Below, piece after piece: positions 3,295 to 61,418 of a stretch of DNA of 64,000 nucleotides. The stretch comes from Candidatus Babeliales bacterium (GTDB lineage: Bacteria > Babelota > Babeliae > Babelales > JANWKD01), in assembly GCA_963762115.1 (NCBI GenBank), contig CAVXJH010000006.1, positions 192,001 through 256,000 of the forward strand, written 5' to 3'. The notes below the pieces were generated by a model. The model was not told the origin of the DNA. It saw nothing but the letters and a program-made list of their open reading frames with translations, and ran no database searches. Position 1 is the first letter of the stretch. The number at the start of each line of letters is the position of its first letter. The translations under genes and the position numbers were made by a program.

Positions 3295-4218
3295 ATGAAA
3301 AAGTTATTGTTATTTTTGTTGCTTAATTTAGTGACATGTGTTTCGGCAATGCAACTATTGAGACAGTGCATTTCACAGGTTGATGGAAAAAAAGTAGCAA
3401 TGACATCTTTGTCTGTAGGGTTAACGTGCCTTCATTATGTTTTGGCATATAATCCTTTGGGATTTATGATTGTTGAAATATGTCAGCCTGTCGATGAATC
3501 AAAAAAAGTTACTCCTGCGGTAGAAAACTTTGTAAAAGAAGAACTTACAAAGTGTGGTTATACCGCTTTCGATAGATTGAAAATAATTAAAAGTTTTGCT
3601 TTTTGCACAAAAGCGACTCCTTCACATGATTATTTATTTTTCAATAGCATGTATGAGCCACGATTGGAAACTGTCTTAAAAGGATCATGGTATAATCGTT
3701 TCTTAGATCGTATTGGCCCATATTTTATTAAGGATATGCAATCGAAACAAGAATATAAAAATACTGTTGCGGGTATAATTCAACATGAAGGTAGTCACCT
3801 TATTAATAAAGATTCTCAAAGATATGTTATAGCCCAGTTGGCAACCGTAGGTGCTCTTGAAATTTTTTCATTTTTTTTGAAAAAAAGAATGAGACCAATT
3901 AATAATTTCTGGATTAAGCAAAGTATGAAAATACCAACCGGAATGGTAAAATTTTCCCTTAATCTTGCAGGTTGTATGGCATTTCATCGTTATACAGAAC
4001 AAGAAGCTGATGATAGTATAAATGATGATATTGCATTGCTAACTGCGGTGAAGAAAGATTTGGAAAAAAAAATGTACTTTCCGTCTGGTGAACCATTTTA
4101 TAATTATATTTTCTTTCAAAATCATCCTTCAGATGGAGACCGTTTTGAACGGTTTACCAGACGTATAGGAAAATTAAAATTTGAAGAACAGCTAAAAAAA
4201 TCTAATAAAAAAATTTAA
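3295..4218 (+). CDS. M48-like zinc metallopeptidase, exported or membrane-bound
   Basis: HEGSH (HExxH), EQEADD (ExxAD) and NHPS...R motifs in M48 order; signal peptide ending SA-MQ. Confidence 0.65.
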   Translation: MKKLLLFLLLNLVTCVSAMQLLRQCISQVDGKKVAMTSLSVGLTCLHYVLAYNPLGFMIVEICQPVDESKKVTPAVENFVKEELTKCGYTAFDRLKIIKSFAFCTKATPSHDYLFFNSMYEPRLETVLKGSWYNRFLDRIGPYFIKDMQSKQEYKNTVAGIIQHEGSHLINKDSQRYVIAQLATVGALEIFSFFLKKRMRPINNFWIKQSMKIPTGMVKFSLNLAGCMAFHRYTEQEADDSINDDIALLTAVKKDLEKKMYFPSGEPFYNYIFFQNHPSDGDRFERFTRRIGKLKFEEQLKKSNKKI

Positions 4219-4277
4219 ATTTGTTGTATCTTCTTTAGAAAGAAGAAATTTTGTTATTAGGTAAGGAGATTTGAGTT

Positions 4278-4712
4278 ATGAAGCGTTTGTTATCTAGTTT
4301 TTTACTTTTGGTGTTATTTTCTACTCAAATATATGCACATGCACCAATAATTGATTATGAAAAAATTAATGCCTGGTGCAACTTTATCAAACTTTCAAAA
4401 GCAGAATTAACCTTATTTCAATCATATCTTCAAGATGGCAAGGAATTAGCCGAACAGTGCAGCAAAGATCCCCATTTTGTTGATTCGTCACAAGGCAAAG
4501 AGTTACAAAATCATATGGATAAATCGGTGCAAGAATTTATGCATGATAATGCTTTAAAAGAAGCGTTTCAGTATTTTGTGATTTTAGTGCGTGAAGAATT
4601 AGCTCAAAATATTCATGAACAAAACAGAAACAAAGTTAAACGTAATTATCGATTACTTGCCATGATATTTGGTGGTTGTTTACAGTGTGTTCAGGAAAAG
4701 TTAGTAAAATAA
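4278..4712 (+). CDS. Hypothetical exported protein
   Basis: AAGGAG RBS and a classical signal peptide ending IYA. Confidence 0.7.
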   Translation: MKRLLSSFLLLVLFSTQIYAHAPIIDYEKINAWCNFIKLSKAELTLFQSYLQDGKELAEQCSKDPHFVDSSQGKELQNHMDKSVQEFMHDNALKEAFQYFVILVREELAQNIHEQNRNKVKRNYRLLAMIFGGCLQCVQEKLVK

Positions 4713-4728
4713 AATTGAAGGAATTTCC

Positions 4729-4980: not shown

Positions 4981-5037
4981 TAATTATTATATTTTGGTAT
5001 ACTTATTAATACTAAAAATTGTAAATTTCTGTTCTTT

Positions 5038-6813: not shown

Positions 6814-6831
6814 TTTTGAGAAATATGCAAA

Positions 6832-8196
6832 CTATTTTTTTAAATGTTCATTAAGTAATTCTTGTATTTCAGGATAAAAGCTTGCCCTCTGAAGAGCGTC
6901 TTTTGTTATTTTAGCGCCTTTGGCTAATAACAGTTTTACCATTTCAGAATTATTTTTTAGTATTGCAAGACTTAATGCATCGATACCCTTATGATCTTGA
7001 ACATTTGGATCACCACCAAATTTGAGAAATTTTTTCACTTCTTCTAAAGAATTTTGTTCAATGATATACGGTAATATAAAACTTCCGTTTTTGTCTGGAT
7101 CATTAGGATTAGCACCAGCCTTGATTAAATATTTTATTGCTTTTGGACTATATAATGCTGCATATAATAATGCAGTACCACCAACTTTATTTTCGATATT
7201 AATATTAGCACCAGCACCAATCAGAGATTTTATTGCTTTTTGATTATTTTTGATTACTGCATACATTAATGCAGTTCTGCCTTTATTGTCTTGTGCATCG
7301 ATATTTTTTAATATTGCATCATTTTGTAGAAGAATTTCCACAGAATCGGGATTGCTTTCTGCTGCAAACATTAATGGAGTTTTACCTTCTTTATCTTTAC
7401 TATTAACTAATTTTTCAGAATCAAATAATAATTTTTTTGAATCAGAATCAATAAAGGGTTGTATGAGAGATGGATTAAATTTAGCGGCAAACATGAGTGG
7501 ATTTTGGCGATATTTATTAGTTTGATGCATATAAGCACCTTGCTTTAAAAACTTTTTAGCCAGTTTTGGCATATAGGCAATGGCTAAAGTAAAGGCAGAC
7601 CGAGCTGTAGTATTAAAATTACTTATTTCGTTTCTTATCTCGGATGAATTTTGTTTCAAAATTTTAAAGATACTTTTGGCAAGTTTTTCATCTTCGTGTT
7701 CAATTGCATTTTGTAAAGGAGTAATGCCGAAAATATCTGGTGAAGTAACATCAAGATTTTTGCCTTCTTTTTCTATTAAATAAAGGGCTGCATTGAGGAA
7801 ACCTTTTTCAATAAGGGCATTAAGAACGGTTCTTCCTCTTCGATCTTTTAGATTTGGATTAACTCCTAATGTTAAAAGATTTTCAACTTCTTGTGCAGAT
7901 TTTGCATTATGAAGTCTTGTTTGATCGAATGGTAGTTTTTTTTGGGCTTCAGCTTTTATCTCTTGCCTTACTTCTTCTGCCGGAATTGATTCTAAAAGTT
8001 CAGGTACATTTTCAAGCTCGGGTATTACTTCAATAAATTTTTGTTTAGCAATTTCTTTTAATGTTTTGATTGGTATTATTTTTTTTTCTTCTAACTTTTG
8101 CTTTTTAGCGGGAGATTCTTTTTTTTCTTCCATAGAAAAAAGTTCAAAAGATATAAAAAATAAGGGTAACGTGATATAGAAAATATTTTTTTTCAT
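6832..8196 (-). CDS. Exported ankyrin-repeat protein with NLS-like and BC-box-like N-terminal motifs
   Basis: Signal peptide, PAKKQKLE, KTLKEIAKQKF...IPAEEVRQEI, then multiple GxTPLMxAA...GAxxN repeats. Confidence 0.9.
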   Translation of the reverse strand: MKKNIFYITLPLFFISFELFSMEEKKESPAKKQKLEEKKIIPIKTLKEIAKQKFIEVIPELENVPELLESIPAEEVRQEIKAEAQKKLPFDQTRLHNAKSAQEVENLLTLGVNPNLKDRRGRTVLNALIEKGFLNAALYLIEKEGKNLDVTSPDIFGITPLQNAIEHEDEKLAKSIFKILKQNSSEIRNEISNFNTTARSAFTLAIAYMPKLAKKFLKQGAYMHQTNKYRQNPLMFAAKFNPSLIQPFIDSDSKKLLFDSEKLVNSKDKEGKTPLMFAAESNPDSVEILLQNDAILKNIDAQDNKGRTALMYAVIKNNQKAIKSLIGAGANINIENKVGGTALLYAALYSPKAIKYLIKAGANPNDPDKNGSFILPYIIEQNSLEEVKKFLKFGGDPNVQDHKGIDALSLAILKNNSEMVKLLLAKGAKITKDALQRASFYPEIQELLNEHLKK

Positions 8197-8225
8197 TGTT
8201 AATCCTTTTTAAGTTTTTTAATTAA

Positions 8226-9920: not shown

Positions 9921-10018
9921 GATGCGATACCTATTAAATTAATGATTTATTAAATTTTTTCTTTATAAATAATCTATAGGTATAATTTTAACAAATACGC
10001 TATTCAAATTGCAATAAT
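9866..10018. repeat. About 150-bp direct repeat (signal-peptide coding start plus upstream region), also at about 11091-11243
   Basis: aaagttcaaaagatataaaaaagag...ctataggtataattttaacaaat...tattcaaattgcaataat occurs in both places with few mismatches. Confidence 0.9.
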
Positions 10019-10048
10019 TAACTTTTTTATAATTAAATTATATGCGCC

Positions 10049-10140
10049 GTACTTTAATTTTTTCTATTTTCTTAACATATACTCTGTTATAATCTTTGCG
10101 TTATCATAGCTTTTTTAGAGAAAAAACAAGTCTGATTAAA
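10049..10140. repeat. Copy of the eno upstream spacer (about 11669-11760)
   Basis: tagcttttttagagaaaaaacaagt[c/a]tgattaaa and flanking similarity are shared. Confidence 0.85.
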
Positions 10141-10179
10141 CAACTTAAAGAATATGGTTTGCAGAAGATAAAGAAGTAA
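10137..10179 (+). repeat. Duplicated 3' end of aspS (KQLKEYGLQKIKK*)
   Basis: 39 of 43 nt identical to 6771-6813; all 4 differences are synonymous third-codon changes. Confidence 0.92.
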
Positions 10180-10182
10180 AAA

Positions 10183-11145
10183 TTACTTCTTTCTTTGTAT
10201 GTATTCATTAACTATTTCCCATAGTTCGGGATATTTATCTTTTTCGCGCATTACTCTATTTCTTGATCCAAGTGGTATTATAGCTCCTGCATTTATTAAG
10301 AGTTTTAGAGCGTTAGCATTGTTATTATTTATTGCTATTGCTGCAGCCTGAGAAGTTGTAATACTATTAATTTTTTTTGAATAAGGACATGTCCAGTATG
10401 AAGTTGTATTGGGATTAGCACCTAACTTAATTAAAAGTTCAACTAATTCTGGTAAATGTTGTATTGCTAAAGTAAGAGCAGATTCTTTTTGATTATTAAT
10501 ATTATTTATTGAATCAAGTTTATTTTGCTTTTGTAAAATAGATATAATTCTTTTTGCAAGTTCTAAATTTTTATGTAAAATTGCTCTTTGCAAAGGAGTA
10601 AAAACATCATTATCTGGTGTACTAACGTCTAAATTTAATAGACCACCTTTTTCATTTATTAAGTTAATTAAATGAAGAGCTTCATTATCATGTTCATTAT
10701 ATATAAGTGAATTTATAGCTGTTTTACCAGATCGATCTTTAATATTTGGATCAAAGCCTAAAGTAAGTGCAGTTTCAATTTCTTTCTCAGTTTGAGCATT
10801 ATGTAATCTTGTTGGAGCAAAAGGAAGTTCTTGTTGTGCTGCTTCTCTTATTTCATGTTTTAGTTCTTCTTCTGGAATTGATTCAATAAATTCTGATAAT
10901 TCTTCTATTTCAGGAGCTATCTCTGCAATCTTTTCAGCAGCAATTTGACGTAATGAAGGAACAGTTGTTCTTCTTCGTTTAATTCGAAGTTGTTGGCAGA
11001 CATTCTCTTGTTCTTGCTCTTTTTCTTTTTCAGGCTCTTTTCGCTTTCGAGATTCTTTTTGGTATTCTTCTTGCTGGCCTTCCATTGCACAAAGTTCAAA
11101 AGATATAAAAAAGAGGGATAAAAGAATAAAAAATAGTTTTTTCAT
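10183..11145 (-). CDS. Exported ankyrin-repeat protein, third paralog of the cluster
   Basis: Same signal peptide, RKRK/KRRR, VPSLRQIAAEKIA, TRLHNA and ankyrin repeats. Confidence 0.88.
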   Translation of the reverse strand: MKKLFFILLSLFFISFELCAMEGQQEEYQKESRKRKEPEKEKEQEQENVCQQLRIKRRRTTVPSLRQIAAEKIAEIAPEIEELSEFIESIPEEELKHEIREAAQQELPFAPTRLHNAQTEKEIETALTLGFDPNIKDRSGKTAINSLIYNEHDNEALHLINLINEKGGLLNLDVSTPDNDVFTPLQRAILHKNLELAKRIISILQKQNKLDSINNINNQKESALTLAIQHLPELVELLIKLGANPNTTSYWTCPYSKKINSITTSQAAAIAINNNNANALKLLINAGAIIPLGSRNRVMREKDKYPELWEIVNEYIQRKK

Positions 11146-11793: not shown

Positions 11794-13047
11794 ATGAAAA
11801 TAATAAAAATACAGGGAAGAGAAATTTTTGATTCTCGAGGATTTCCAACACTCGAATGTGAACTCACGTTAGATGACGGTTGTTCATTTATAGCATCAGT
11901 TCCTTCAGGAGCTTCAACGGGAATTCATGAAGCAATTGAATTGCGTGATAATGATGCGCAGCGATTATTTGGTAAGGGAGTATTAAAGTCGATTGATATT
12001 CTTGAAAATGTTATAGCTCCTGCCTTGATTGGTAATGCCCCACAAGTTTGTAGCATAGATCGATTTATGATTGATCTTGATGGAACGCCAAACAAAGCAC
12101 GATTGGGTGCAAACACCATTCTATCAGCAAGTATTGCGGTTCTAAAAGCGCAGGCGCATCTTGAACAGGTTGAGCTCTATGAATGTATCGCACACCTTTA
12201 TAATGCTGAAGCGGTTATGCTGCCTATTCCTCTTTTTAATATGATCAATGGTGGTGCACATGCAGATAATAATTTGCGTATACAAGAATTTATGGTTGCT
12301 CCTCTGGGTGCTAAAAATTTTAGGCATGCATTAGAACAAGCTTCGCTCGTATTCCATCATTTAAAACGATTACTTAAAGAAGCTGGCAAAACTGTTTCTG
12401 TTGGTGATGAGGGCGGATTTGCACCTCATTTTGAACATGAAGTAGAAGCGATCGATTTTCTCTTGAAAGCAATTGATGAGGTTGGTGATCAAGATATGTT
12501 TAGAATTGCCCTTGATGTTGCAGCATCAGAATTTTATAATGCACAATCTCGCACTTATTTGTGGCATAACAAAGAATATTCATCAACTGATATGATCGCT
12601 TTTTATCAAGAATTGCTTGCGTATTATCCAATTTATTCAATTGAAGATGGTCTTGCACAAGATGATTGGGATGGTTGGATGACATTGAATCGTACACTTG
12701 GTGAAACAACACAAATTGTTGGTGATGACCTTTTTGTTACTTCAAGTTCGCGCATAATTCACGGTGTAAAAACACATGCAGCAAATGCAGCAATAATCAA
12801 ACCCAATCAAGTTGGCACGGTTACTGAAACATTGCAAGCAATTCAAACGTGCCAAGAATATGGTATGGGCACGATTATTTCGCATCGTTCAGGAGAAACT
12901 GAAGATTCGTTTATTGCTGATCTTGCTGTTGGCACGAGTGCAGGTCAAATCAAAGCAGGAAGTTGCTCACGTGGTGAACGAATGGCAAAATATAATCGTC
13001 TTTTGCGCATTGAAGATCAACTCATTTATGGATTACTTGAGGGCTAA
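11794..13047 (+). CDS. eno: Enolase
   Basis: DSRGFPT, VPSGASTG, GDEGGFAP, SHRSGETED and GQIKAG...RGERMAKYN motifs. Confidence 0.98.
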   Translation: MKIIKIQGREIFDSRGFPTLECELTLDDGCSFIASVPSGASTGIHEAIELRDNDAQRLFGKGVLKSIDILENVIAPALIGNAPQVCSIDRFMIDLDGTPNKARLGANTILSASIAVLKAQAHLEQVELYECIAHLYNAEAVMLPIPLFNMINGGAHADNNLRIQEFMVAPLGAKNFRHALEQASLVFHHLKRLLKEAGKTVSVGDEGGFAPHFEHEVEAIDFLLKAIDEVGDQDMFRIALDVAASEFYNAQSRTYLWHNKEYSSTDMIAFYQELLAYYPIYSIEDGLAQDDWDGWMTLNRTLGETTQIVGDDLFVTSSSRIIHGVKTHAANAAIIKPNQVGTVTETLQAIQTCQEYGMGTIISHRSGETEDSFIADLAVGTSAGQIKAGSCSRGERMAKYNRLLRIEDQLIYGLLEG

Positions 13048-15789
13048 CAACGGATTATTTGAATCCTGCATAAGTTGTTTTAATCGTTCAGCACGATATT
13101 GCATAGCATTATTTACTTGCTGCATCCCATTTTTTTCGGGTATCGCGTTTTCATATTCTTTATAATCATGTTGTATTCCCGATTTAATAACTTTTTCTTG
13201 CGCATTTTCATTCTCAGGAATAGCATTTTCATATTCTGTGAAATCATGTTTAATGTTAGCTTGATTGAATTCTTGCTCTGGAACGGCAATTTCATCTTTG
13301 CATGTTGCAGCTTCTTCACAATCATAGGTGACAGGAATAGTCTTATTTGTTGCATTACATGTTGGTTTTATGATGCTGCAATAGCCAGGATCATTACACA
13401 TATCACGTTTATCACTGCAACGTGAGCCACGCGCTTTACTCTCAGAGTGAACGTTCCATTCATTTTTCATTTCATGATTAACAAAATTGCCAATAACGGT
13501 ATCTGCATAGGTGAGATTTGGTTTAAAGAACCAACGAGTGACAGGATCGCGTAATGTTTCAAAAGCAAGTTCTTCAGTAAGTTCATTTTTTGCATAACAT
13601 AATTTGTCTTTTGTATAGCTGCCAATGCCGCCTTTCACCTTTGGATACATGATGCGTGGTGAAATAAAAATCATCAGATTATTTTTTGTTTTATTATCTC
13701 CTTTTCGTTTGAAGAACCAACCAAAGATAGGAATTCTACTCAATAATGGTGTTTCATTTTCACTGATTGAATCATTGAGGCTAATTAAACCACCTAACGC
13801 TAAAACTTCTCCGTTACCCACATTGGCGTTTGTTTGTACTAAACGTGTTCTTCTATTATTATTTTCGGCAAGAAATTGTTCAACTTTTACAATAATATTT
13901 AAATTAATATTATTATTATCAACACTGATACGTGGCAAAATATCAATTGAGGTAGCCGCAACAACATCATCTTTTTGGACTTTAATACCACCAGTTTGAC
14001 TTACTGCATCACCATCAACCAATCGTTGTTCGGCGATGGTGATTGAAGCTTGTCGATTATCTGCAGTCGTTATGAATGGTTGTGCAAGTAAGGTGCTGTT
14101 GGTATAAGCATCGAGAACCTGCCAAACACTCCAAATGCCGCTGTTATCAGGATCATTGAATGAGATTACCATTGATCCAACACCGCCTTCGGTGGCAAGA
14201 TTGAAGTTGCCGGTTTCGCCTTCTTGAATGCGCAATAAGTTTGCCATAAGTGCATGATTTGGATAGAACGGAATACTACCATTTGCAGTGTCTATACTGC
14301 CATTACCAGGACGAAGCACCGGAGAATCGATCATTGCTGTTTGAAAATCAACATTATCTGACCCTACGTTAAATAAACTACCTTTATTTCTCATTTGGCT
14401 GCCAAGGATTTTATCATTATTGAGCGTTAAGTCGACAACAAGAACTTCAATGGCAACTTGTGGTTGCGGTTTATCAAGGTCTTCAATGAGTGCCTTAATA
14501 CGAATCCAATCTTGTTTGCGCGCAGCAACAATAAGACGATTACCCGCTTGTTCAATACCTTGCGTTTCACCACTCACCGATTCACTACCATGAACTGCAG
14601 AAGGCGTCTCGCTTGGCGTGATTTGTGTGGCTTCGCTTTTTTTCGGTGCTTTTATGCTAAGCGTTGATTTTTCTGCAACAATGATGACATCTTGGAAATC
14701 TCGCTTTGGTCCTACTGTTTGACCTTGTGTTTGTGCTTGTCCTGTTACTGATTTGCTGATTAAATCTTGTAATATTCCTTGGAAATCTTCCGCATTAAGA
14801 TATTGCAAATCATAAATATGTAAGATTGATTCACCTGTTTCTAAGGGATGATCAATATATTTTATAATAAAATCTTTTACTGTTCTGATTGCCTTTATTG
14901 ATCCCATCACGACGATGGCATTTGTGCGTCCGAGTGCTAAGACTTTGGTGTTAGGGGGAAAGTAAGAAACTTGTTTGGTTGTTTCTCGGGTAGGGGTTGC
15001 ACTTGGTGTTGCTACAAATAATTTATTTTTAAAAAGATCTTCAACAAATGCGGCTTCTGTATAAAAAAGTGGAACAACTTCAATAGCATCGGGAATACCC
15101 TCTAAATCAAGTTCTTTGATAATAATCATTGCTGCACGAATATTGTCGGCTTTATCAGTTATAATAAGTGCATTTGTTTTATCATCACGTTTTATATCAG
15201 CCATAGGAGAAAGCATTGATTTTAAGATCGCTTCAATATTGGTACGTGTTGAATCATTGCTTAATTTTAGATTAGCAAGATAAAAAATTGTTTGTATGAC
15301 AGTGCCATCATTTGGCAAATCTTCAATTTGTGGATTTTTATAAACAGTAAGGGGTTCACGTTTAATATCATTGCTTATTTTAGTGAGTATCAGAAGATCA
15401 TCGTGGGGAATCCAAGAATAACCAAGAAATTCGAGAATTTTATTAACTTCTCGCCATGCTTGATTAAGAGTGACTTTTTTGGGTAGTTGATACGTTAACT
15501 TGGTGGTTAATGCATTGGGACTTTGTGGTTGGGGTAAAATAATATTAACTTTTTTTTCAGCTGCATATTCATTAATGACATCAGAAAGGGGAATATCTTT
15601 ATAGTTAAAAGAATATAGTTTTTTGGGTGCTTCTTGTGGAGCATCAGCTTTTGATTCGCTCGTATTTGGTTGATTTAATTTTTGTTCAAGAACTTTTTTT
15701 ACTGCCGTTAGCTCTTCAGTTGCTTTAGCATATATCGCACTATGTGCTAGCAGAATAAATAATGCTTGATAGATTATTTTAGTTTTCAT
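13033..15789 (-). CDS. gspD: Type II secretion secretin GspD (second copy) with Cys-rich C-terminal extension
   Basis: N-domain repeats (TNALII, NRLIV), LDKPQPQVAIEVLVV, and LGGLI...PLLSRIPIFGWFF...LMIFISPRI. Confidence 0.9.
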   Translation of the reverse strand: MKTKIIYQALFILLAHSAIYAKATEELTAVKKVLEQKLNQPNTSESKADAPQEAPKKLYSFNYKDIPLSDVINEYAAEKKVNIILPQPQSPNALTTKLTYQLPKKVTLNQAWREVNKILEFLGYSWIPHDDLLILTKISNDIKREPLTVYKNPQIEDLPNDGTVIQTIFYLANLKLSNDSTRTNIEAILKSMLSPMADIKRDDKTNALIITDKADNIRAAMIIIKELDLEGIPDAIEVVPLFYTEAAFVEDLFKNKLFVATPSATPTRETTKQVSYFPPNTKVLALGRTNAIVVMGSIKAIRTVKDFIIKYIDHPLETGESILHIYDLQYLNAEDFQGILQDLISKSVTGQAQTQGQTVGPKRDFQDVIIVAEKSTLSIKAPKKSEATQITPSETPSAVHGSESVSGETQGIEQAGNRLIVAARKQDWIRIKALIEDLDKPQPQVAIEVLVVDLTLNNDKILGSQMRNKGSLFNVGSDNVDFQTAMIDSPVLRPGNGSIDTANGSIPFYPNHALMANLLRIQEGETGNFNLATEGGVGSMVISFNDPDNSGIWSVWQVLDAYTNSTLLAQPFITTADNRQASITIAEQRLVDGDAVSQTGGIKVQKDDVVAATSIDILPRISVDNNNINLNIIVKVEQFLAENNNRRTRLVQTNANVGNGEVLALGGLISLNDSISENETPLLSRIPIFGWFFKRKGDNKTKNNLMIFISPRIMYPKVKGGIGSYTKDKLCYAKNELTEELAFETLRDPVTRWFFKPNLTYADTVIGNFVNHEMKNEWNVHSESKARGSRCSDKRDMCNDPGYCSIIKPTCNATNKTIPVTYDCEEAATCKDEIAVPEQEFNQANIKHDFTEYENAIPENENAQEKVIKSGIQHDYKEYENAIPEKNGMQQVNNAMQYRAERLKQLMQDSNNPLLALK

Positions 15790-15800
15790 TATTTAATTCC

Positions 15801-16379
15801 TTAGCTCTCAATTTCTTTTGGTGTTTCTACTTTTGGTTCAAGGGTCGCAATAGTTAGTTTTACATTGATAGCATTTGGATTTGTTGTTGAGCGTTCAACT
15901 TCAACATCCTTTGTATAAATTCTTTCTTCAAGTTCAATAGCATGGAGCAATTCGCTCATTTTTTTTGTATTCATATTGGTAAGATTAGCATACAATGTCC
16001 ACTCAGTATAATATCCATCCAGAACTTCTTGTGACATAGTTTCAACGTCTTGTGTTTTATTACTCATGAGTCCTAATTTTTGGAGTAGTTGATCGAAATA
16101 TTGAGAAATTTTGAAGTCTTTCTCTTTTGCTAATATCGCATCAACACCTACTTGTAGTTTTTTGACCAAATCATAACGACTGACCAATTCGCGTACGGCA
16201 ACGCGATGTTTATTCACTATAGCTATGCGAGAACGTAATGAGGAAATATTTCTATAATAAAGAAATACAATGAGTCCCATAAGAGCAATCAAAACACCAA
16301 AAGCAATAAGAATGTAATTTCTAAATTCTTTTTGATCCCAGTTATCGATATAGTTCTTTAACGAAGTTAAGATATTCAT
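15801..16379 (-). CDS. gspM: GspM/PilO-like inner-membrane platform protein
   Basis: Single N-terminal TM segment, coiled coil and ferredoxin-like C-terminus; lies between the gspL-like gene and gspD. Confidence 0.65.
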   Translation of the reverse strand: MNILTSLKNYIDNWDQKEFRNYILIAFGVLIALMGLIVFLYYRNISSLRSRIAIVNKHRVAVRELVSRYDLVKKLQVGVDAILAKEKDFKISQYFDQLLQKLGLMSNKTQDVETMSQEVLDGYYTEWTLYANLTNMNTKKMSELLHAIELEERIYTKDVEVERSTTNPNAINVKLTIATLEPKVETPKEIES

Positions 16380-18013
16380 TGAGTAACACCATTTTTCTTT
16401 AAAGGCATTTGCAAGGTGAATTTTGTAGTTTGTAAACTTGGTATAGTGAGGAATAAGTTAGTATTTTTTAACTCTCTTTCAAGTATTTTGAGTGCGTCAA
16501 AATCTTTTACTTCACCTTCAAGAGTAAGACTACTTGGTTCTTGTTGACTAATGATTAATTTTGTTATTTTAAGCCCAAGAGCATTTCTATCAATCGCAGC
16601 ACTGAGTTTTTCTAAATACTTTAAGAACGATACTCTTGTTTGCTGTGAGAATGCAAACCAAATAGCTTCTTCTTCGGTAACTTTTTCTTCTGCTTCGCGT
16701 ATGCCAACAGCTACTGATTTTGCATTAGTAAGCCCAAGTTTTTTTAAAGTTGAAAGTACTTCTTGCTCGGATGCTGCTACTTCTTTTTTTACCGTTTTGG
16801 TACGGAGAAAATTATTAACAAGCAGACCGATAAAAATACAACCAATAAGGAAAAAGCTCGTAATAATTTGTTTATTAAAAAGAGAATTTTCTGATGGTGC
16901 GAATTCTTGCCTGAGTAGATTGAACTCTTGCATGCGAGGTGTTATGAGTGCCGTACTTAAGCTTACTATGGTAGATTGCGGTATTTTTTTGCCATTTTTA
17001 ACAGAAAATCCCGGAACGTCCAAAAGAGCATTTATAGCGAATAATTCAGTTGAAATACCCAATTGTTCATTAAAAAATGAAACCATGTTGGGTAATTCTG
17101 CACCATCACCTAATAATAAAATGTTATCAAGTTTTTTATGGTTTGGATTTTGTGCAATAAATGAATCTAAAGTAAATCGAATTTCATTAAGATATGAGGT
17201 TACAACAGTATGAATAGCCTTACTATAAGGATCTTCAGTGTTTTTTTCCAAACCAAATCGAATAATTTTTTCTAACGTATCTTGTGGTGTTGCCGACAAA
17301 GATTGAGCAATTGTTTTTGCCCAGTTGGTGATTCCTTTTGGCAAGGTGCGAAGTAAGGTGAGTTGTCCATCAATGACGTAGGCAATGCTGGTAAAGTTAT
17401 AGCCGAGGTCAATAATTGCTGTTGCGCCTTTTGATGATGCATAACGAGGAATTATTGTGTAGAGGCCATATAAATCAAAAAGATCAATGGTAATAGTGTT
17501 TGGCGTAACTCCTGCAGCTTGAAAATAACTTACATGCTCAATAATATGTTGTTTTTGCAGAGCACACACAAGAACTTCAGAAGTATGTTGTTCAGGATTA
17601 CTTTTTGTAATAATAAAATCAATGATTGCATCTGAGGTAGGAAATGGCAAATATGGTTCAATTTCATAATTAAGAACCATGCTAATTTTATCACTCTCTA
17701 AAAAAGGTAGTGTTAACCCTTTAAAAATAGCATTTGAGCTTGCAAGTGAAGTGCGTATTAAATCATAACGATCAGCAGTTGCAAGAATTTTTTTTATGGC
17801 CTGTGCTACACGATCAGCAAAGGGAATAGACATATCTGTTGTTAATGATTCAGTAAAAAAACGTTCTAAAGTAACTTTATTTCCGTGCATCAGTACTTGT
17901 GTAGCATGTACCGATGATTTGTTAATAGAAAATCCTATTATTCTTTGTGAAATAAGATAATTGGTACCGAATTTTTCAGGAATAAAAATATTTTTTACAA
18001 GATTAGCTATCAT
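16376..18013 (-). CDS. gspL: GspL / PilM-PilN-like fused assembly protein
   Basis: Actin-like N-domain (IIDLG, ILLLGDGA), FNLL motif before a TM segment, and periplasmic domain with LTLEG. Confidence 0.75.
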   Translation of the reverse strand: MIANLVKNIFIPEKFGTNYLISQRIIGFSINKSSVHATQVLMHGNKVTLERFFTESLTTDMSIPFADRVAQAIKKILATADRYDLIRTSLASSNAIFKGLTLPFLESDKISMVLNYEIEPYLPFPTSDAIIDFIITKSNPEQHTSEVLVCALQKQHIIEHVSYFQAAGVTPNTITIDLFDLYGLYTIIPRYASSKGATAIIDLGYNFTSIAYVIDGQLTLLRTLPKGITNWAKTIAQSLSATPQDTLEKIIRFGLEKNTEDPYSKAIHTVVTSYLNEIRFTLDSFIAQNPNHKKLDNILLLGDGAELPNMVSFFNEQLGISTELFAINALLDVPGFSVKNGKKIPQSTIVSLSTALITPRMQEFNLLRQEFAPSENSLFNKQIITSFFLIGCIFIGLLVNNFLRTKTVKKEVAASEQEVLSTLKKLGLTNAKSVAVGIREAEEKVTEEEAIWFAFSQQTRVSFLKYLEKLSAAIDRNALGLKITKLIISQQEPSSLTLEGEVKDFDALKILERELKNTNLFLTIPSLQTTKFTLQMPLKKNGVTQ

Positions 18014-20829
18014 GTTCTCACCTCGTTATCTTTAGCGTTATCGATGGGTAAGAACTCCATAATCGATTTTCGTTTTTTTTGTTGAACAGAAGGCCGTTCT
18101 CTTTGTTCATTTTGCGTTATCGCGACCGCATGGGATGACACTGCTGCAGCTTCTTCATCAGCTTCAAGTGCTTTTACGGCACGTGGTTTTTCTTGTTGCA
18201 CAAATTCAATATCTTCTTGTTCAGGTTTTTTTTGTGCTTGTTGTGCTTCTAATTTTTCTTTTTTTGCTTCTTGTTCAACGGCTAATGCATTTACATCTTC
18301 TTCATCTTCTAAATCTTCTTGTTCAAGAGGTTCTTCTAATGGGGCTTGTTCTTCATCTTCTAAGAGTGCGTTTAATTTGTCTATCGAAGACACACAATTT
18401 GATTTAGCCAGACAACGTGGCTCTCGAGCGCAGGTATATTTATCTTTGCACGTTTGACCAGTGCAACGACAACGATAAAGATCACTATCAAAAACATCAT
18501 TTATGCGACAATCAATAACCTTTCCTGGTTCCAAGCAAGGGCTTTGTGGATGCAGGAAGAATTCAACTTTTTCTGTATCTTCATCGGGTCTATCTTTGAA
18601 GAACCAACGATGAATTGGGTCACGTTGTTCATAAGGTTGTCTCATATCACGTAAAGCATTTTTAGAATAATCGGCTTTTTTCACGGTGTAATTGCCAATA
18701 CCGCCTTGAGCCATTGGTTGTACGATTTGTGGTGAAATAAAGACTAATAAATTACTCTTATTTTTTGCTTTATTTTTATTTTTAAAAAACCAACCAAGAA
18801 TGGGAACTTTGCCAAGCAAAGGAACTTCAAAAGTTGCATCACTATTTTGATTTTGTAATAAGCCGCCGATGGCAAGAATTTCTTTATTAGCAACATTTGC
18901 ACTTGTTTTAATTGTTTTAGTATTTCTTGTTGCACTTGTTGCTAGAGCATCAGTAAAGGTATCAACGTCAATTCTAATTTCAAGATTAATTATGCCATCA
19001 TTATTAATTTGTGGGGTAATTTCCACCGTTAAATTTGCTGATAAATCAGCTTGTGTTGCGACCGTAGCATTACTTTGAACCGTACCCGTTGATACACGTC
19101 TCGTTTCACCAAGCGAAACACGTGCGGTAAACTTGTTGGTTGTTGTTAAAAATGGGTATGAGACAAGACTTGAATAGGTATAGGTTTCAAGCATTTTAAA
19201 GAGGGCCCAAACACCACCAGCAATGTTGCCGCCAATAGAAAGTAATGTTGTGCCGGGGTTTTGACCTTGTGCTAATGAAATTAAATCTCCCATAAGTCCA
19301 CCACTTGCATTTGTTATTATTCCTGATGTGCCGCCGCCAGTGATGCCAGAATTTTGAAATTCAACATTTCTTGTTCCTAAGCTGCCACCAAAACCGGGAG
19401 TTTTTGTTCGTATTTGTGATCCTAATGATTTAAGTTTGGTGGTATTAACGTTAACGACCAATACTTCAATAGCAATTTGTGGCTGTTTTACATCGAGTTG
19501 TTCAATGATAGTGCGAACCTTTAAATAATCTTCTTTTTCAGCACGAATAAGCAATCTGTTGCCGGAGGGCTCAGAAATGAATTGCATTTGTCTAAAAAAT
19601 TTATTGCCATCGCGAACGCCGCCATATATTGCAGCTTTTGAGTTAGGAGCAAATGCGGTGACTTGATTGAGAATTTGTGCAATATTATCCGAATTGGCAT
19701 ATTGCAAATCATAAACATAGAGAGGTGAATATGGTTGTTGTAGTTCTGTATCAACATAATTAAGAATAAAATCTTCAACTTTTTCTATGCTTGCGCGGGT
19801 ACCAAGAATAATAAGTGCATTGGTGCGCGGTTCGGCAATAAGTTTTGTATCTTCAGGAAAATAAGCTGTTGTTGATTGTTTTTTTGCGCCGAATAATCGT
19901 GCTGCTATGCCAGTTTTTTGCTCTTCTCGCGCAACAAGATTTTCATAAAGTGATACAACATCTTCGGCATTAGCATGTTTTAATTTTAACACTGAAAGTG
20001 CTTCGGGCATACTAACATTATCAAGTTCGCTGAGTATTGCCATTATTGAACGAATGTTTGATGATTTATCTGAAAAAATTAAAGCATTTAAGTCTTCAAA
20101 AGGTTGTACGATACCACTTTTGCTTTTGAAATCTTGCGCTATGGTGTTAAGTGTTGCCAATTGACTGTTTTCAACAAAATACACAAAACGAATTTTAGTA
20201 TCGTTGTCGGGTAAATCGCGCCACTTAACCCCAATAAAAACGGGAAGTGGTGCTTGATTGGCAACATCAGCAGGTAAAACAGTATAAGAAATAGGATGAC
20301 CATCAAGATATTGATTTGGCACGAGGGTTACACCAAAAAGATCGAGAAAACTTAAAAACAAATCCCAAACTTGACGTTTAGTCATTGATTTTTGTGTTTT
20401 ATAGGTAATAAGATTGCCGGCAACTTTACCTATGGCAGGGGGGGTAAAAGCATCGCCCGTTAAAAAATTAATTTTGAATATTTTTTTTATCCAATCTAAA
20501 AGATTGAGAATATCGGTTTTATCAAGATTAACTTCAATCGTATCATTGATGTTATGTATTGCTTCTCGTGGCATAAGTGAATTTAAATCTTTTTGAAGAT
20601 GAGCTTCATCATGATCATCAATCGTGCCATCTTTTAATTTTTGTACTTCTTTTTCTTCTTTTTTTGCTATTCGTTTTTTTTGTTTTCTTTTTTTTTGACT
20701 CTCAAGAGAATCATGATCAACTTTTTGTTTATTAGTTTCAATTGCACCATGCATGGTAAAGAATGAATGCCACATGATACTATGAAAATAAAGAGTGATT
20801 AAACAAATGAGTAAGGATCTTTTTTTCAT
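18010..20829 (-). CDS. gspD: Type II secretion secretin GspD with Cys-rich and acidic C-terminal extension
   Basis: LKHANAED, EPRTNALIILG, LDVKQPQIAIEVLVV, and IGGLL...VPLLGKVPILGWFF...LLVFISPQIV. Confidence 0.92.
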   Translation of the reverse strand: MKKRSLLICLITLYFHSIMWHSFFTMHGAIETNKQKVDHDSLESQKKRKQKKRIAKKEEKEVQKLKDGTIDDHDEAHLQKDLNSLMPREAIHNINDTIEVNLDKTDILNLLDWIKKIFKINFLTGDAFTPPAIGKVAGNLITYKTQKSMTKRQVWDLFLSFLDLFGVTLVPNQYLDGHPISYTVLPADVANQAPLPVFIGVKWRDLPDNDTKIRFVYFVENSQLATLNTIAQDFKSKSGIVQPFEDLNALIFSDKSSNIRSIMAILSELDNVSMPEALSVLKLKHANAEDVVSLYENLVAREEQKTGIAARLFGAKKQSTTAYFPEDTKLIAEPRTNALIILGTRASIEKVEDFILNYVDTELQQPYSPLYVYDLQYANSDNIAQILNQVTAFAPNSKAAIYGGVRDGNKFFRQMQFISEPSGNRLLIRAEKEDYLKVRTIIEQLDVKQPQIAIEVLVVNVNTTKLKSLGSQIRTKTPGFGGSLGTRNVEFQNSGITGGGTSGIITNASGGLMGDLISLAQGQNPGTTLLSIGGNIAGGVWALFKMLETYTYSSLVSYPFLTTTNKFTARVSLGETRRVSTGTVQSNATVATQADLSANLTVEITPQINNDGIINLEIRIDVDTFTDALATSATRNTKTIKTSANVANKEILAIGGLLQNQNSDATFEVPLLGKVPILGWFFKNKNKAKNKSNLLVFISPQIVQPMAQGGIGNYTVKKADYSKNALRDMRQPYEQRDPIHRWFFKDRPDEDTEKVEFFLHPQSPCLEPGKVIDCRINDVFDSDLYRCRCTGQTCKDKYTCAREPRCLAKSNCVSSIDKLNALLEDEEQAPLEEPLEQEDLEDEEDVNALAVEQEAKKEKLEAQQAQKKPEQEDIEFVQQEKPRAVKALEADEEAAAVSSHAVAITQNEQRERPSVQQKKRKSIMEFLPIDNAKDNEVRT

Positions 20830-20842
20830 TTTTATAATCCGT

Positions 20843-21982
20843 TTAAGTTCTAAGTGGTACAGAATTCATAAGCATATTTCTTTGTCTATCACCGGTTGAT
20901 CCGTACTGTACAATATCGCGCTTTTGTCTCATGCGTAACTCGTCTAAAGTTGGTGCAAATTGTTGCCGTTGACGTAAAATTTCGATTCTTTCTGCTTCAA
21001 TCTGCTCGGCTGATTTTATTGGAAGGCCAGAAGTTTCTTTTCCTGGCGTCGTTGCCGTTTTTTCAATTGATTGTAACGTGTAGTGTAGCATAATTTCTTG
21101 ATTATTTCTCATGAGAGTAATGTTGATAGTATCGCCATTATTCATAGCAATTATTTTTTGATAGATTTCGAATCGCGAATCGGTTGTAGTAGAAGGAATA
21201 TTGTTAATTGAGGTAATAATATCACCTTGTTGTAATCCTAAGGCAAGACCTATTGATTTGGGCTGCAAAGCGCCAACGCGGCAACCAATACTTTTACCTT
21301 GCTTATACACAGTAATTAAATTAAATGAGTCAATACACTGACTTAAATTCGAAATGTGTTTTATAAAACTCATTGGATCAACTGCATAGGAATTTTCTCC
21401 CGTTTTTTGTACAACTGAGGTCCAATCATTTGGAGCAAGTAATTGTTGATCAAGTTCTGCATCATATTGATTAACATATAGTGTTTCTTGTTGACCATTT
21501 GAACGGATGAGGATTATTTTATTTCTTAAAATTCTAATTAATTGAGCATCTTCAATTTTATCGCCAATCATATAATTTTTTGCCGTAGTTGATTTTGTGT
21601 CTTGAATAATGGCGATATTTTCTGTTTCATTATTCAAGGTAATGATTCCCTTAAGCGTGATTTGAAGGGGTTCTAGAAATTTTGGTGGCGATGCAATAGG
21701 CACTCTTACCGGTTGTGGCATTGGTGGTTCAGGAATGGCGATTCTTGTTTCAACGGGAGCAAGTATAGGAGAAGGTTGTTGATACGTGCCAAAAAGATCA
21801 TTCATATAAATCTTACTTAAATCAAGTCCTGAAACATCTTTTTTAGGAGGTTTAACCTCGGATTCTGGTTTTAAGCCTGCACGCTTTGGCATTGTTGGCG
21901 CAGACAACATTATAAAGCCTATAACGATAAAAAATAACAATAATAATGCGTCATTAAGCAGCCAAAAGGGATGTTTCATCAA
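20843..21982 (-). CDS. gspC: Type II secretion protein GspC (HR plus PDZ domains)
   Basis: N-terminal TM segment, Pro-rich linker, LKGI...AII...GDKI HR domain, PDZ motif LGLQQGDIITSIN; first gene before gspD. Confidence 0.85.
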   Translation of the reverse strand: MMKHPFWLLNDALLLLFFIVIGFIMLSAPTMPKRAGLKPESEVKPPKKDVSGLDLSKIYMNDLFGTYQQPSPILAPVETRIAIPEPPMPQPVRVPIASPPKFLEPLQITLKGIITLNNETENIAIIQDTKSTTAKNYMIGDKIEDAQLIRILRNKIILIRSNGQQETLYVNQYDAELDQQLLAPNDWTSVVQKTGENSYAVDPMSFIKHISNLSQCIDSFNLITVYKQGKSIGCRVGALQPKSIGLALGLQQGDIITSINNIPSTTTDSRFEIYQKIIAMNNGDTINITLMRNNQEIMLHYTLQSIEKTATTPGKETSGLPIKSAEQIEAERIEILRQRQQFAPTLDELRMRQKRDIVQYGSTGDRQRNMLMNSVPLRT

Positions 21983-35256: not shown

Positions 35257-35988
35257 TTAATTTGCTTCCTTTTCTTTTTCTGCATGCTCTTGTTTTAGGA
35301 GTTGTAAAATTTCTTGAGTGTTTTTGAGGGCTCTTTCTCTATGCTCCTGATCTTTATCTTTATCATCATTCCAAAAGATAATTTCATGATTATAGAGCTG
35401 TTTATAGCGTTTTTTAATAAAATCAAGAGTGTTAGATTCATTAACAATTAATTCAGGGTCGCCATCATGTTCTAACAATTTTTTGAAAAGAACGAGAGCT
35501 GGTCGGTAACCATATGAAGCTGATTCTGTTGTGAATCTCAATAATGAGATTTTTTTTTGATCAAAAGAGTTGATTATAAAGCTGTTTGGTGTAAATTTGG
35601 TTGCTTCAAAATAGGTATTCAATACTTGATCTAAAATACCAAGTTCATTATATTTTTCTGCCCAAAAAAGAATATGTGATCTAAAGAATTGAAATGATTC
35701 TTTTTGGATGTTTGGATTTTCTAAATAAGATGTGAAATAGTCATAAAATTTTTCGGATTCAGATTTTTTAACAGTTAATATTTCTTGTGGGGAAACATAT
35801 TCTTTTTTTCTTGCTTTAGCGCGTTTTCTTTGCAAGCCTCTTCTTTGACCCTTGGTTATTTTTGGTGCTGTACTACTTTCTTGAATGATAGAAGTTGCTG
35901 AAAGTGCAGAAGCACCTTCTTCCATGGCAATTAATAAATAAGAACTTGATATGGTTAACAAGAACATTGAATATTTTAAAAACTTCAT
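35257..35988 (-). CDS. Exported protein of a local paralog family (SASYGY domain)
   Basis: AAGGAG RBS before the ATG at 35988; signal peptide; domain shared with 36118 and 41053. Confidence 0.8.
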   Translation of the reverse strand: MKFLKYSMFLLTISSSYLLIAMEEGASALSATSIIQESSTAPKITKGQRRGLQRKRAKARKKEYVSPQEILTVKKSESEKFYDYFTSYLENPNIQKESFQFFRSHILFWAEKYNELGILDQVLNTYFEATKFTPNSFIINSFDQKKISLLRFTTESASYGYRPALVLFKKLLEHDGDPELIVNESNTLDFIKKRYKQLYNHEIIFWNDDKDKDQEHRERALKNTQEILQLLKQEHAEKEKEAN

Positions 35989-57436: not shown

Positions 57437-57440
57437 AAAA

Positions 57441-58796: not shown

Positions 58797-58949
58797 AAAA
58801 TTTAATTCCTGTTACGTTATGATTATTAGTGTAAAGGAGATCTTGGTCTCTGGTCAATTTTAAAAAAAAAGGTATTCTATTTTATTACTTTGTCACTCTG
58901 TTAACTGCATGCAAAAAAAAACTGCAGTGTTATGTCTCAGGAGCATTAG

Positions 58950-61418
58950 ATGACAGCATCGTCTATCAAAAAAATTAACTCTACAACGGTATTATTTATT
59001 TCTTGTGCTTTTTTCTTGGTACAATCTACCTTTTTGTTTGCAATGCAACCAACAGAAGAATTGTCTCAAGATGTTGAGCAGAATGAGGTTTTTGATGATG
59101 ATATTTCTATTATCAAGCAACGACGAATTCATGATATTATTGTTGAAGGTAACCATCATGTGAGCACTGAAGCAATTTTTAATAAGATTCCTTATCATAA
59201 GGGTGAGATATTTTCTCCGTTGAAATCTAGATCACTTATTAATAATGTGATGCAATTAGGTTATTTTAAAAATGTACAAATCTTTGGCAAGAACGTTGAT
59301 GATGGTATTGATTTGTATGTTGTCGTTGTTGAAAAAAAACTATTAAAAGAGGTTATTTTTAAAGGTAATAAACACTTAACCGAAAAAGAAATTACCGCCA
59401 AAATTCCCTTTGCTGATATTCCGGCCTTGGATGAATCAGATTTAAAAAAATATTGTATCGCGATAAAAAAACTGTATCGAGATAAAGATTATCATCAGGC
59501 AACTGTTGAAGCTACTCTTGAAGATCATGATGAAAAAGTTACCGCGATCTTTACTATTAATGAACAAAAGAAAACAGCAGTAAAGCGCGTATTTTTTGAA
59601 GGCAATAAGGCTTTTGATAGCAAAAAATTACGCAGTATAATTTTCACTCGTGAAGATTGGGCTTTTGGTTTCTTAGATCGAGCGGGAAGTTATCAACCTG
59701 AAGCAATTGAATCAGATAAACATGTGTTAGAAAATTTTTATCAAAGTAATGGTTATCTTAATGCAAAAGTGACTAAAGTTGACATTGTTCCTGATGAAGA
59801 TCCTCATTATGTACAAGTTACTTTTCATATTGATGAAGGCGATCTTTATACGCTGAGTTCAATAACGGTGCAAGGCAATGACGCTGTTTCAGAAGAACAA
59901 ATTCTTGTGCGTTTGCCCATTGCTGTTGGCGATCTCTATTCAAAAGATAAAATACGGCAAGCAATTGAAACAATCAGATTAATCTTGGGCGAGTTTGGTT
60001 ATATTTATGCCGATGTTGAGCCATCAATTGAGCCCGATGATGAAAATAAAACAGTAAGTTTGTCTTTCTTTACTGAGTTAGGTGATAAAGTCTTTTTGGA
60101 AAGAATTAAGATTATTGGTAATGAAAAAACGCGCGATAAAGTAATTCGTCGTCAGTTACTCTTTGATGAAGGCGATTTATTAACTACGCAAAAACTTGAA
60201 GAATCAAAGACGCGTGTTGAAAATCTTGGTTTCTTTGATCAACAAGGTGGTGTCAGCTGGAAATATGACCGTACAACAAAGGATTCTGCCGATTTAAAAC
60301 TCTATGTTAAAGAAATCAAAACAGGAAGACTTGATGCACAAGTTGGGTTTGGTGGTTCGCCAAAAGATTTACAAAATCCAACTGAATCATTAAGAGTTGG
60401 AGGATCTCTTTCTGATACTAATCTTTTTGGTCTTGGTATCGGCTTTAATTTAAGTGGTGAAATTTCCAAACAAGAGCGTCAATTACTCTTTAATATAACT
60501 GAACCGTGGCTTTTCGATCGACCAATTTATGCAGCGTTTGATGTTGCATTCAAAAAATCTGTCTACGATGATTTTCAGTTGACCAAAGATGAAGTTAAAG
60601 AGCAACTTGCAAGCGGATCATTAAGTTTAGGTTTTGTTGCAGCAAGTTTAAATCAAACAAGATTTGTGTGCCAAGCTGGCTACGAAGGATTGCATTATAA
60701 AAAGCAACCTGTTGCTGATCTTGGTGCCAATGCTGACCCTAAAGAACAGGCAGAATTTCAACGAATTTTAGATAAGCGTTTCCCACAAGGTAATTTTCCA
60801 TGGCTTGGTAGTCAGGCAGCACAAGATTTTAGAAATCATCCATTGCATCCAAGTCGTGGGTATCAGTGGCAAGTTACGACCAGAATTGGTATTCCCAATG
60901 ATGCATTTGGTTTTTGGAAATTTGATTGTGATGCAAGTTATTATACACCAATTATAGGTGAACGAGATTTAGTGTTTTATCTTCACTCACATTTTGGTTG
61001 GGTAACTGCTTTTATGGATAAATTAATTCCATTCAGAGAGTTGTATCATATTGGTGGTCCGTCAAGTGTGCGCGGCTTCCTGTTTGGTGAAATAGGGCCA
61101 ACATTCAAAGGTGTTGATTCAATTGGTGGTAAAAAAGCATTTTGGTTAAATGCTGAACTTATCTTTCCTGTAGCGCCAGATTTTTCGATAAAAGGTGTTC
61201 TTTTCTATGATGGTGGTGCGGGATGGGATACGCCCGACGCAGATCAAATTGCAAAAAAACGACTCAAGAATAATCATTTTAGTTATAGGCATTCAGTTGG
61301 GTTTGGTGTGCGTATTTATCGTCCAACACCTATTCGTATTGATTGGGGTTTTAAGCTTGATCGTAGAAAAGGTGAGAAAGCGAGTGAAGTTCACTTAAGT
61401 TCTTCCTATGATTTCTAA
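58950..61418 (+). CDS. bamA: Outer membrane protein assembly factor BamA
   Basis: POTRA repeats (GNxxT.D.VIRR), VRGF loop-6 motif, and C-terminal barrel ending in F. Confidence 0.96.
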   Translation: MTASSIKKINSTTVLFISCAFFLVQSTFLFAMQPTEELSQDVEQNEVFDDDISIIKQRRIHDIIVEGNHHVSTEAIFNKIPYHKGEIFSPLKSRSLINNVMQLGYFKNVQIFGKNVDDGIDLYVVVVEKKLLKEVIFKGNKHLTEKEITAKIPFADIPALDESDLKKYCIAIKKLYRDKDYHQATVEATLEDHDEKVTAIFTINEQKKTAVKRVFFEGNKAFDSKKLRSIIFTREDWAFGFLDRAGSYQPEAIESDKHVLENFYQSNGYLNAKVTKVDIVPDEDPHYVQVTFHIDEGDLYTLSSITVQGNDAVSEEQILVRLPIAVGDLYSKDKIRQAIETIRLILGEFGYIYADVEPSIEPDDENKTVSLSFFTELGDKVFLERIKIIGNEKTRDKVIRRQLLFDEGDLLTTQKLEESKTRVENLGFFDQQGGVSWKYDRTTKDSADLKLYVKEIKTGRLDAQVGFGGSPKDLQNPTESLRVGGSLSDTNLFGLGIGFNLSGEISKQERQLLFNITEPWLFDRPIYAAFDVAFKKSVYDDFQLTKDEVKEQLASGSLSLGFVAASLNQTRFVCQAGYEGLHYKKQPVADLGANADPKEQAEFQRILDKRFPQGNFPWLGSQAAQDFRNHPLHPSRGYQWQVTTRIGIPNDAFGFWKFDCDASYYTPIIGERDLVFYLHSHFGWVTAFMDKLIPFRELYHIGGPSSVRGFLFGEIGPTFKGVDSIGGKKAFWLNAELIFPVAPDFSIKGVLFYDGGAGWDTPDADQIAKKRLKNNHFSYRHSVGFGVRIYRPTPIRIDWGFKLDRRKGEKASEVHLSSSYDF

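Follow-up and report, generated by a model that had tools for sequence, protein, structure and literature searches.

Over a third (about 40%) of the signal-peptide proteins of one Babeliales genome carry methionine at the predicted signal peptidase cut, usually as Met-Glu, Met-Gln, Met-Asn or Met-Asp. The pattern was traced from a stretch of 64,000 nucleotides (G000:C6:192001-256000, hereafter the window) of this 1.53 Mb genome (G000), a member of the phylum Babelota, which is also known as Dependentiae or TM6 and consists of protist parasites; its BamA shares 79% identity with the BamA of a Candidatus Babeliales MAG, which places the genome there. The Met-type set is made up mostly of eukaryote-like and orphan exported proteins. 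We conclude that this is a real, genome-wide and cargo-specific rule for the first residue after the signal peptidase cut (+1), whose nearest described relative is the Bacteroidetes Q-rule. As to its meaning, we see about an even chance that the signal peptide recreates a host-style N-terminus, so that delivered proteins escape decay through host N-degrons.

Signal peptides and cut sites were predicted throughout with our own heuristics, on proteins from our own gene caller. The filter, which reads the n- and h-regions only, classed 588 of 1418 G000 proteins as signal-peptide-like and free of further membrane helices; among 541 annotated proteins 18 were cytoplasmic, and two window proteins (starting at 35988 and 52647) were missed. 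When residues 13-36 were searched for [ASGCT]M[EDQN], the motif was found in 216 of the 588, whereas equal stretches farther down the same proteins gave 13/587, 12/565, 7/539 and 10/496, and G000 proteins lacking a signal-like start gave 34/739. The motif occurs in 144 of 421 families and in 113 of 361 single-copy proteins, which rules out paralogue inflation as the source of the excess. The recurrence of such dipeptides, noted by the first-pass annotation at eleven window junctions, holds across the genome, at 216 against 7-13 per control stretch.

The cut is predicted at the Met itself. An untrained rule that is blind to +1 and uses upstream residues only placed Met at +1 in 167 of the 588 proteins, compared with 9-32 at other offsets. 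A matrix of upstream residues chose the Met site in 168 of 215 family-held-out cases, a figure that is helped by the selection of training sites with a small residue at -1. Met was rightly called uncommon at this position: it accounts for 0.00% of 307 experimentally mapped Gram-negative substrates, in which Ala reaches 41.7% (PMC2638155 and its supplement). In G000, the untrained predictor returned Met 145 times and Gln 25 times among 497 proteins. The residue after these 145 methionines was Glu in 83, Gln in 18, Asn in 11, His in 9, Asp in 7 and Lys in 5, so that Glu, Gln, Asn and Asp together account for 119. This bias is partly generic, because Asp, Glu, Asn and Gln also make up approximately 45% of +2 residues in the Gram-negative reference sets (PMC2638155). 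Within the sample from which the sites were taken, hydrophobic residues follow Met in 4 of 213 cases (25% expected) and small residues in 13 of 213 (31% expected).

By sequence, the Met-type sites look like ordinary substrates of Sec and signal peptidase I, with a basic n-region, a hydrophobic h-region and small residues at -1 and -3. At -1, the 213 sites have Ala in 93, Gly in 56, Ser in 38, Cys in 19, Thr in 4 and Pro in 3; the commonest residues at -3 are Leu (81), Ser (29), Ala (28) and Ile (23). These spectra are similar in Met and non-Met substrates, and both are looser than the reference sets, where Ala occupies -1 in 93% (PMC2638155). The genome encodes two tandem signal peptidase I paralogues (G000:C3:457976-459744), both of the ordinary Ser/Lys type. 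Copy number in the phylum varies from one to three without tracking the Met rule (one in the Met-rich genome G001, two in G010, which lacks the motif), and a dedicated signal peptidase paralogue was rejected on these grounds. In 137 protein pairs with similar signal peptides, identity was 0.77 at +1 and 0.48 at +2, and then fell to approximately 0.2. The Met-X dipeptide thus belongs with the signal and not with the mature domain, which fits selection on the mature terminus and a travelling cassette alike. Across 70 families, the signal peptides of Met-type proteins are diverse, with a mean column identity of 22%.

To compare cargo classes, as the first-pass annotation had proposed, we labelled proteins by family on the basis of Pfam annotation, which covered 516 of the 588 proteins (first 450 residues) and 25 window proteins. 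After removal of entries whose site was weak or had Cys at +1, Met was predicted at +1 for 33 of 43 proteins in the eukaryote-like class, whereas envelope proteins had it in 1 of 29 cases and enzyme-type proteins in 4 of 45; among proteins without a Pfam match the count was 158 of 326. By motif, over all labelled rows, the corresponding figures are 34/44, 5/42, 6/58 and 170/379; with paralogues kept in, eukaryote-like proteins differ from envelope proteins at p 5e-10 and from enzymes at p 4e-12. At least three of the five envelope matches lie within the signal. The sole envelope protein with a predicted +1 Met is BamA, which had been advanced as an argument against effector specificity; as a single case among 29, it does not carry that weight. 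Ankyrins dominate the eukaryote-like class, and six of eight linked ankyrin families carry the mark, as do all four exported J-domain proteins, the one RING protein and seven of eight WD40 proteins (the eighth has Met-Ser). All nine Skp1/POZ-like matches, two of them above the Pfam cut-off, carry it as well.

An independent marker of a cytosolic destination is found at the other end of the chain. The CaaX box is a C-terminal prenylation signal that can be used only in the eukaryotic cytosol. In G000, 13 of 264 Met-type proteins have it, whereas it occurs once among the 306 remaining exported proteins (p 5e-4); counted by family, the figures are 9 of 181 and 1 of 225 (p 0.006). Correspondingly, Cys peaks at -4 from the C-terminus of Met-type proteins, with 21 occurrences compared with 2-7 at other positions. 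An F-box-like motif is present in seven of the 264 Met-type proteins, from three families, and in none of the 306 others. A comparison of cysteine parity between the two sets gave no significant difference. At least 14 exported G000 proteins end in CaaX, often behind a polybasic run (L065:3927, L078, L091:6015, L070:7013-7423, L101:12295), and CaaX-like ends also occur in the relatives G001, G040, G041, G047 and G048. Among the literature matches listed, none reported host prenylation of Babelota effectors. Some members of an exported family with a Skp1/BTB-like N-terminal domain (L044:12826-13398, L049:1-3232) combine it with WD40 repeats and CaaX; this family probably supplies host ubiquitin-ligase adaptors.

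The rule is unevenly distributed across the phylum. The strict DNA pattern L/F-x-A/G-M-E-E/Q/K, of whose 29 matches in G000 27 were true junctions, is a rough proxy to which in-frame internal matches add background; a 3.7 Mb Fibrobacteraceae genome has five matches. In 121 Babelota genomes it gave 665 matches, compared with 214 for the reversed control. At least seven matches were found in 36 of the 121 genomes, from 8 of 17 families, with G000 highest and no control above five. In sampled stretches of 80-500 kb each, the protein motif was found in 10/32 signal-bearing proteins of G001, 6/34 of G005, 23/192 of G040, 7/112 of G041 and 5/73 of G048, and in 0/40 of G047, 0/40 of G027 and 0/12 of G010. 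The residue after Met also differs between lineages. According to the predictor, Met is followed by Asp, Glu, Asn or Gln in 119/145 cases in G000 and 12/16 in G040, compared with 1/15 in G048 and 1/7 in G041. Met occupies +1 in all 15 G048 ankyrins inspected by eye; the next residue is Ile in 4, Val in 3, Gln in 3, Ser in 2, and otherwise Ala, His or Thr. The ankyrins of G040 mostly start with Ser or Ala followed by Glu, Gln, Asp or Ser, those of G041 with Ala-Ala or Met, and in Met-poor relatives the CaaX and ankyrin proteins open with SD, SQ, SE, AQ, AA or AD (all by eye). When effector-like proteins of relatives were pooled, Met, Ala, Ser, Thr, Val or Gly occupied +1 in 42 of 61, compared with 174 of 350 others (p 0.008).

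In a G041 ankyrin family (L164, L154, L019) the junction reads N-A-L-P and is followed by Ala-Ala or Met; the cut may follow the Pro, or it may follow the Ala and leave Leu-Pro for possible removal by a dipeptidyl peptidase. Pro is likewise seen at -1 in G000, G001 and G048. Beyond the phylum, some alphaproteobacterial protist endosymbionts may have the same Ala-Met-Glu junction. A plasmid search returned no protist-endosymbiont plasmid among the best 50 of 210. A profile of 70 N-termini gave four marginal matches in 1.84 billion proteins, two ESM Atlas queries gave no usable match, and homologue searches retrieved generic WD40 proteins or one near relative only. One 99-residue database protein (P0123) has two apparent successive signal-plus-Met units.

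That mature effectors mimic host N-termini, one of the first-pass hypotheses, leads among the explanations because Met is rare at +1 elsewhere and because the mark goes with host-type cargo. In the mechanism that we infer, Sec would export the proteins, a Ser/Lys signal peptidase of relaxed -1/-3 preference would cut them just ahead of the Met, and they would leave through the type II system and reach the host cytosol by some route. In that cytosol, a terminus of Met and a large polar residue would escape trimming by the host Met aminopeptidase and, acetylated or not, would be read neither as a Met-hydrophobic terminus nor as an Arg/N-degron. Envelope proteins and luminal enzymes would never meet the proteasome, and therefore their +1 residue would be free. 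Other lineages appear to get the same result with Met and other second residues, or with Ser or Ala. Listeria p60, cleaved by signal peptidase, is reportedly an N-degron substrate in the host cytosol. The same has been described for escaped BiP (PMC8037982), and Met-hydrophobic termini are reported to bind Ubr1. For both p60 and BiP, what becomes of the protein in the eukaryotic cytosol depends on the residue that signal peptidase leaves exposed. Whereas p60 and BiP are single proteins, the Babelota mark would be proteome-wide, involving more than 200 proteins with a rebuilt initiator-like Met.

Several observations weigh against host-style termini. Ala is already a stabilising N-terminus, and Met is thus neither the sole nor the simplest fix, because the usual bacterial +1 residue (Ala, 41.7%) would already serve. 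Ten of the 44 eukaryote-like proteins lack the motif, some of them with predicted Lys, Asn, Gln or His termini, and the N-terminus of BamA, which has the Met, should stay periplasmic. In G048, 4 of the 15 ankyrins have Met-Ile and 3 have Met-Val, Met-Ile being a degron type. Once Met is set aside, the pooled excess of the other five residues in effector-like proteins of relatives is not significant (26/45 compared with 135/311, p 0.08). Nor did the Pfam F-box and SOCS models match any exported protein, and neither a nuclear localisation signal (NLS)-like motif (21/264 Met-type, 14/306 others, p 0.12) nor a BC-box-like motif (p 0.19) was enriched. A further point concerns NatB, the acetyltransferase whose substrates these termini resemble: its Asp/Glu/Asn/Gln set makes up the commonest second residues in G000. 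NatB is tethered to the ribosome and acts on nascent chains (PMC9692967), which delivered proteins are not. The strict NatB rule suggested by the first-pass annotation is not borne out, because the second residue is lineage-specific, with Met-Ile, Met-Val and Met-Gln in one genome (15/15 G048 ankyrins with Met, 3/15 with Met-[EDQN]; Ala and Ser also follow Met there) and Ser or Ala at +1 in others. We therefore take the Met to be the conserved element and acetylation to be optional.

The exposed Met-X could instead serve as an export tag that is recognised during exit, either by the type II system or at the crossing of the vacuole membrane. We regard this as possible but doubtful, and it is not mutually exclusive with a host-style terminus. 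The analogy is with the Plasmodium export element (PEXEL), in which proteolysis likewise exposes a terminus with Glu, Gln or Asp in second place on host-bound proteins of a vacuole-dwelling parasite. Mature PEXEL proteins begin with xE/Q/D, the first residue being decisive for export (10.1101/2023.07.12.548774); this matches Met-E/Q/D, which begins 108 of 145 Met-type G000 proteins (3 of 15 in G048). An export tag would account for the same bias towards eukaryote-like and CaaX cargo, and for the invariance of Met in the G048 ankyrins (15/15) while +2 varies. However, PEXEL is an RxLxE/Q/D motif cut by plasmepsin V, an aspartic protease, whereas the Babelota sites are bacterial Sec signals with a signal peptidase I site, fix Met at +1 and lack Arg from the set of residues that are common at -3 to -6; no PTEX-like translocon is known, and an export role would stand by analogy with PEXEL. 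As a tag, Met would also mis-sort BamA, one CaaX protein and ten eukaryote-like G000 proteins do without it, no receptor or translocon was identified, and any conserved machine would need to recognise other tags in G040, G041 and G047, whose ankyrin and CaaX proteins mostly start with Ser or Ala. The boldest form, a bacterial counterpart of PEXEL in which Met-X is both a pass for crossing the outer membrane and the vacuole membrane and a degron-free start, so that two residues alone sort about half of the phylum's secretome to the host cytosol, is speculative and rather unlikely; if true, it would give a type II secretion route its first linear cargo code.

It is unlikely that the Met is nearly neutral and merely travels on a signal peptide ending in Met-Glu, copied or recombined onto fast-evolving effector genes. 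The paired identities given above would follow from such a cassette, as would the patchy frequency across the phylum and the Met on BamA and a few enzymes in Met-rich genomes; among BamA orthologues, 6 of 31 have the Met (by eye), five of these in genomes with high pattern counts. Against this, the signal peptides are otherwise highly diverse (22% identity across 70 families), a one-codon Met would decay fast, and the mark, present on 113 of 361 single-copy proteins, is found again in 8 of 17 families. Still less probable is a reason within the envelope, namely that a +1 Met suits the lineage's signal peptidase or guards against periplasmic aminopeptidases, much as the pyroglutamate of the Q-rule works by stabilising exported proteins (PMC10653852). 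BamA and the two tandem peptidases would fit; the Met is absent from 28 of 29 exported envelope proteins and from 41 of 45 of enzyme type, whereas the Q-rule is not compartment-specific (PMC5837995), and neither the -1/-3 spectra nor the peptidase copy number tracks the rule. Finally, an in-frame ATG exactly at the domain boundary, in a set that includes a few ordinary enzymes, could be a second or former start codon, giving a cytoplasmic form by internal initiation or marking where a signal peptide was placed before an existing gene. We consider this very improbable. Of 236 true starts, 144 have a Shine-Dalgarno-like word in front of them, compared with 5 of 236 inner ATGs (and 93 of 1069 deep ATGs), and no Kozak-type codon bias is seen at -1 (Ser as AGY in 12/43, against 32% genome-wide), so internal initiation and a Kozak-like context were rejected. 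The residue-2 spectrum of 739 non-exported proteins (Lys 122, Asn 80, Leu 72, Ile 68, Ser 64, Glu 26) is unlike the 83 of 145 Glu after Met, and the earlier idea of grafting before existing start codons falls with it. On the Shine-Dalgarno, residue-2 and codon data, the Met does not work as a second start, nor is it just a relic of a former one.

The resemblance to the Bacteroidetes Q-rule lies in a lineage-wide fixed residue after the signal peptidase I cut, read as protecting the mature protein (PMC5837995, PMC10653852). Whereas the Q-rule fixes Gln at +1, the Babelota mark is Met; whereas it covers approximately 71% of substrates in all compartments (PMC5837995), the G000 mark follows cargo class. 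The Q-rule terminus is cyclised by glutaminyl cyclase; no modifying enzyme turned up here, where no search was aimed at one, and the Babelota mark is patchy across its phylum, unlike the Q-rule. The main text of the Q-rule paper makes no mention of methionine, TM6 or Dependentiae (PMC5837995), and the word methionine is absent from the main text of the Babela paper (PMC4378268). No report of a Met rule at the signal peptidase cut was found among the matches listed from the literature searched, chiefly freely readable papers.

With such a mark, host-delivered proteins could be recognised from two residues of sequence alone in a phylum that is widespread, hardly cultured and endowed with mostly orphan secretomes; in G000 it would make effector candidates of 158 of the 326 exported proteins without a Pfam match. 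The pattern suggests that a host N-degron problem faces Sec-dependent effectors but not injected ones, which keep their own start Met, and that one lineage has solved this problem proteome-wide by rebuilding that Met after the signal peptide. Should the terminus instead be recognised during export, the mark would have a bearing on type II cargo selection and on how cargo leaves the vacuole. Host-style termini and an export tag can both be addressed by single-residue changes.

The setting agrees with what has been described for relatives. Chromulinavorax has signal peptides on 44% of genes and 78% of ankyrin proteins (PMC6561590). Babela grows in a vacuole, with a signal peptide on 79 of 126 ankyrin proteins and type II as the sole secretion system detected (PMC4378268), and a pair of secretins is a general Babelota trait (PMC4776705). 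The type II/type IV pilus cluster of the window is likely the outer-membrane exit of Met-type proteins. Both of its secretins lack the Met after the predicted cut.

All eleven window open reading frames (ORFs) listed by the first-pass annotation were found with a signal peptide, predicted at 17-31 residues, followed by Met-Gln, Met-Glu or Met-Asp (Table 1). A weight matrix of upstream residues, applied in-sample, ranked the Met site top in nine and second in two. Their description as several unrelated families stands in part: because of paralogy they reduce to approximately seven groups. Three of the ankyrin ORFs are paralogues with 38-46% identity, the ORFs starting at 35988 and 41730 are 49% identical, and that at 52647 weakly matches that at 9920. 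The starts at 35988 and 41730 are inner ATGs of longer ORFs, each preceded by a Shine-Dalgarno sequence.

Table 1. Met-type exported proteins and the secretion cluster of the window.
Feature	Coordinates	Strand	Predicted signal peptide and junction (codon positions)
Exported ORFan, 307 aa	3295..4218	+	18 aa, then Met-Gln (3349-3354)
Ankyrin-repeat protein, 454 aa	6832..8196	-	21 aa, then Met-Glu (8133-8128)
Ankyrin-repeat protein, 564 aa	8226..9920	-	20 aa, then Met-Glu (9860-9855)
Ankyrin-repeat protein, 320 aa	10183..11145	-	20 aa, then Met-Glu (11085-11080)
Exported ORFan, 129 aa	11259..11648	-	17 aa, then Met-Glu (11597-11592); Met site rank 2
Type II secretion/type IV pilus cluster (two secretins, PilM-like, GspC-like)	13033..21982	-	
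Exported ORFan, 221 aa	34433..35098	-	20 aa, then Met-Glu (35038-35033)
Exported ORFan, 243 aa, paralogue of 41053-41730	35257..35988	-	21 aa, then Met-Glu (35925-35920)
Exported ORFan, 225 aa	41053..41730	-	21 aa, then Met-Gln (41667-41662)
Exported ORFan, 490 aa	52647..54119	+	21 aa, then Met-Asp (52710-52715)
Short ankyrin protein, 106 aa	54173..54493	-	19 aa, then Met-Asp (54436-54431); Met site rank 2
BamA, 822 aa	58950..61418	+	31 aa, then Met-Gln (59043-59048)

In the three ankyrin paralogues (6832-11145, minus strand), basic NLS-like clusters lie no more than 15 residues from the Met, and a BC-box-like stretch (T/S-L-x-x-I-A) is found 24-44 residues in. Babelota BamA proteins have a variable, often very acidic extension of approximately 10-70 residues between signal peptide and POTRA1 (window 58950-59120; L104-L132).

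Elsewhere in the genome, a tandem PvcA/Dit1 pair (L055:12889-15203) has a Met-Glu junction on the second copy only, and the mark is found on one of two CPT-like paralogues and on one of several methyltransferase paralogues. These cases suggest that paralogues may be split between destinations. Signal-like starts were also seen on normally cytoplasmic enzymes, namely a glucokinase, a DOT1-like methyltransferase, a histone deacetylase-like protein, a MavL-like ADP-ribosylhydrolase, a DXD glycosyltransferase and GNATs (window 26255-27325, minus strand; L054:5732, L068:3534, L086:14444, L069:10428, L093:1). A thymidylate synthase-like protein of this set is Met-type, and most of the set lack the Met. 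An IS110-family transposase (61595-63801, minus strand) lies between an integrase-core fragment and an unassigned ORF, which may be the remainder of a second element.

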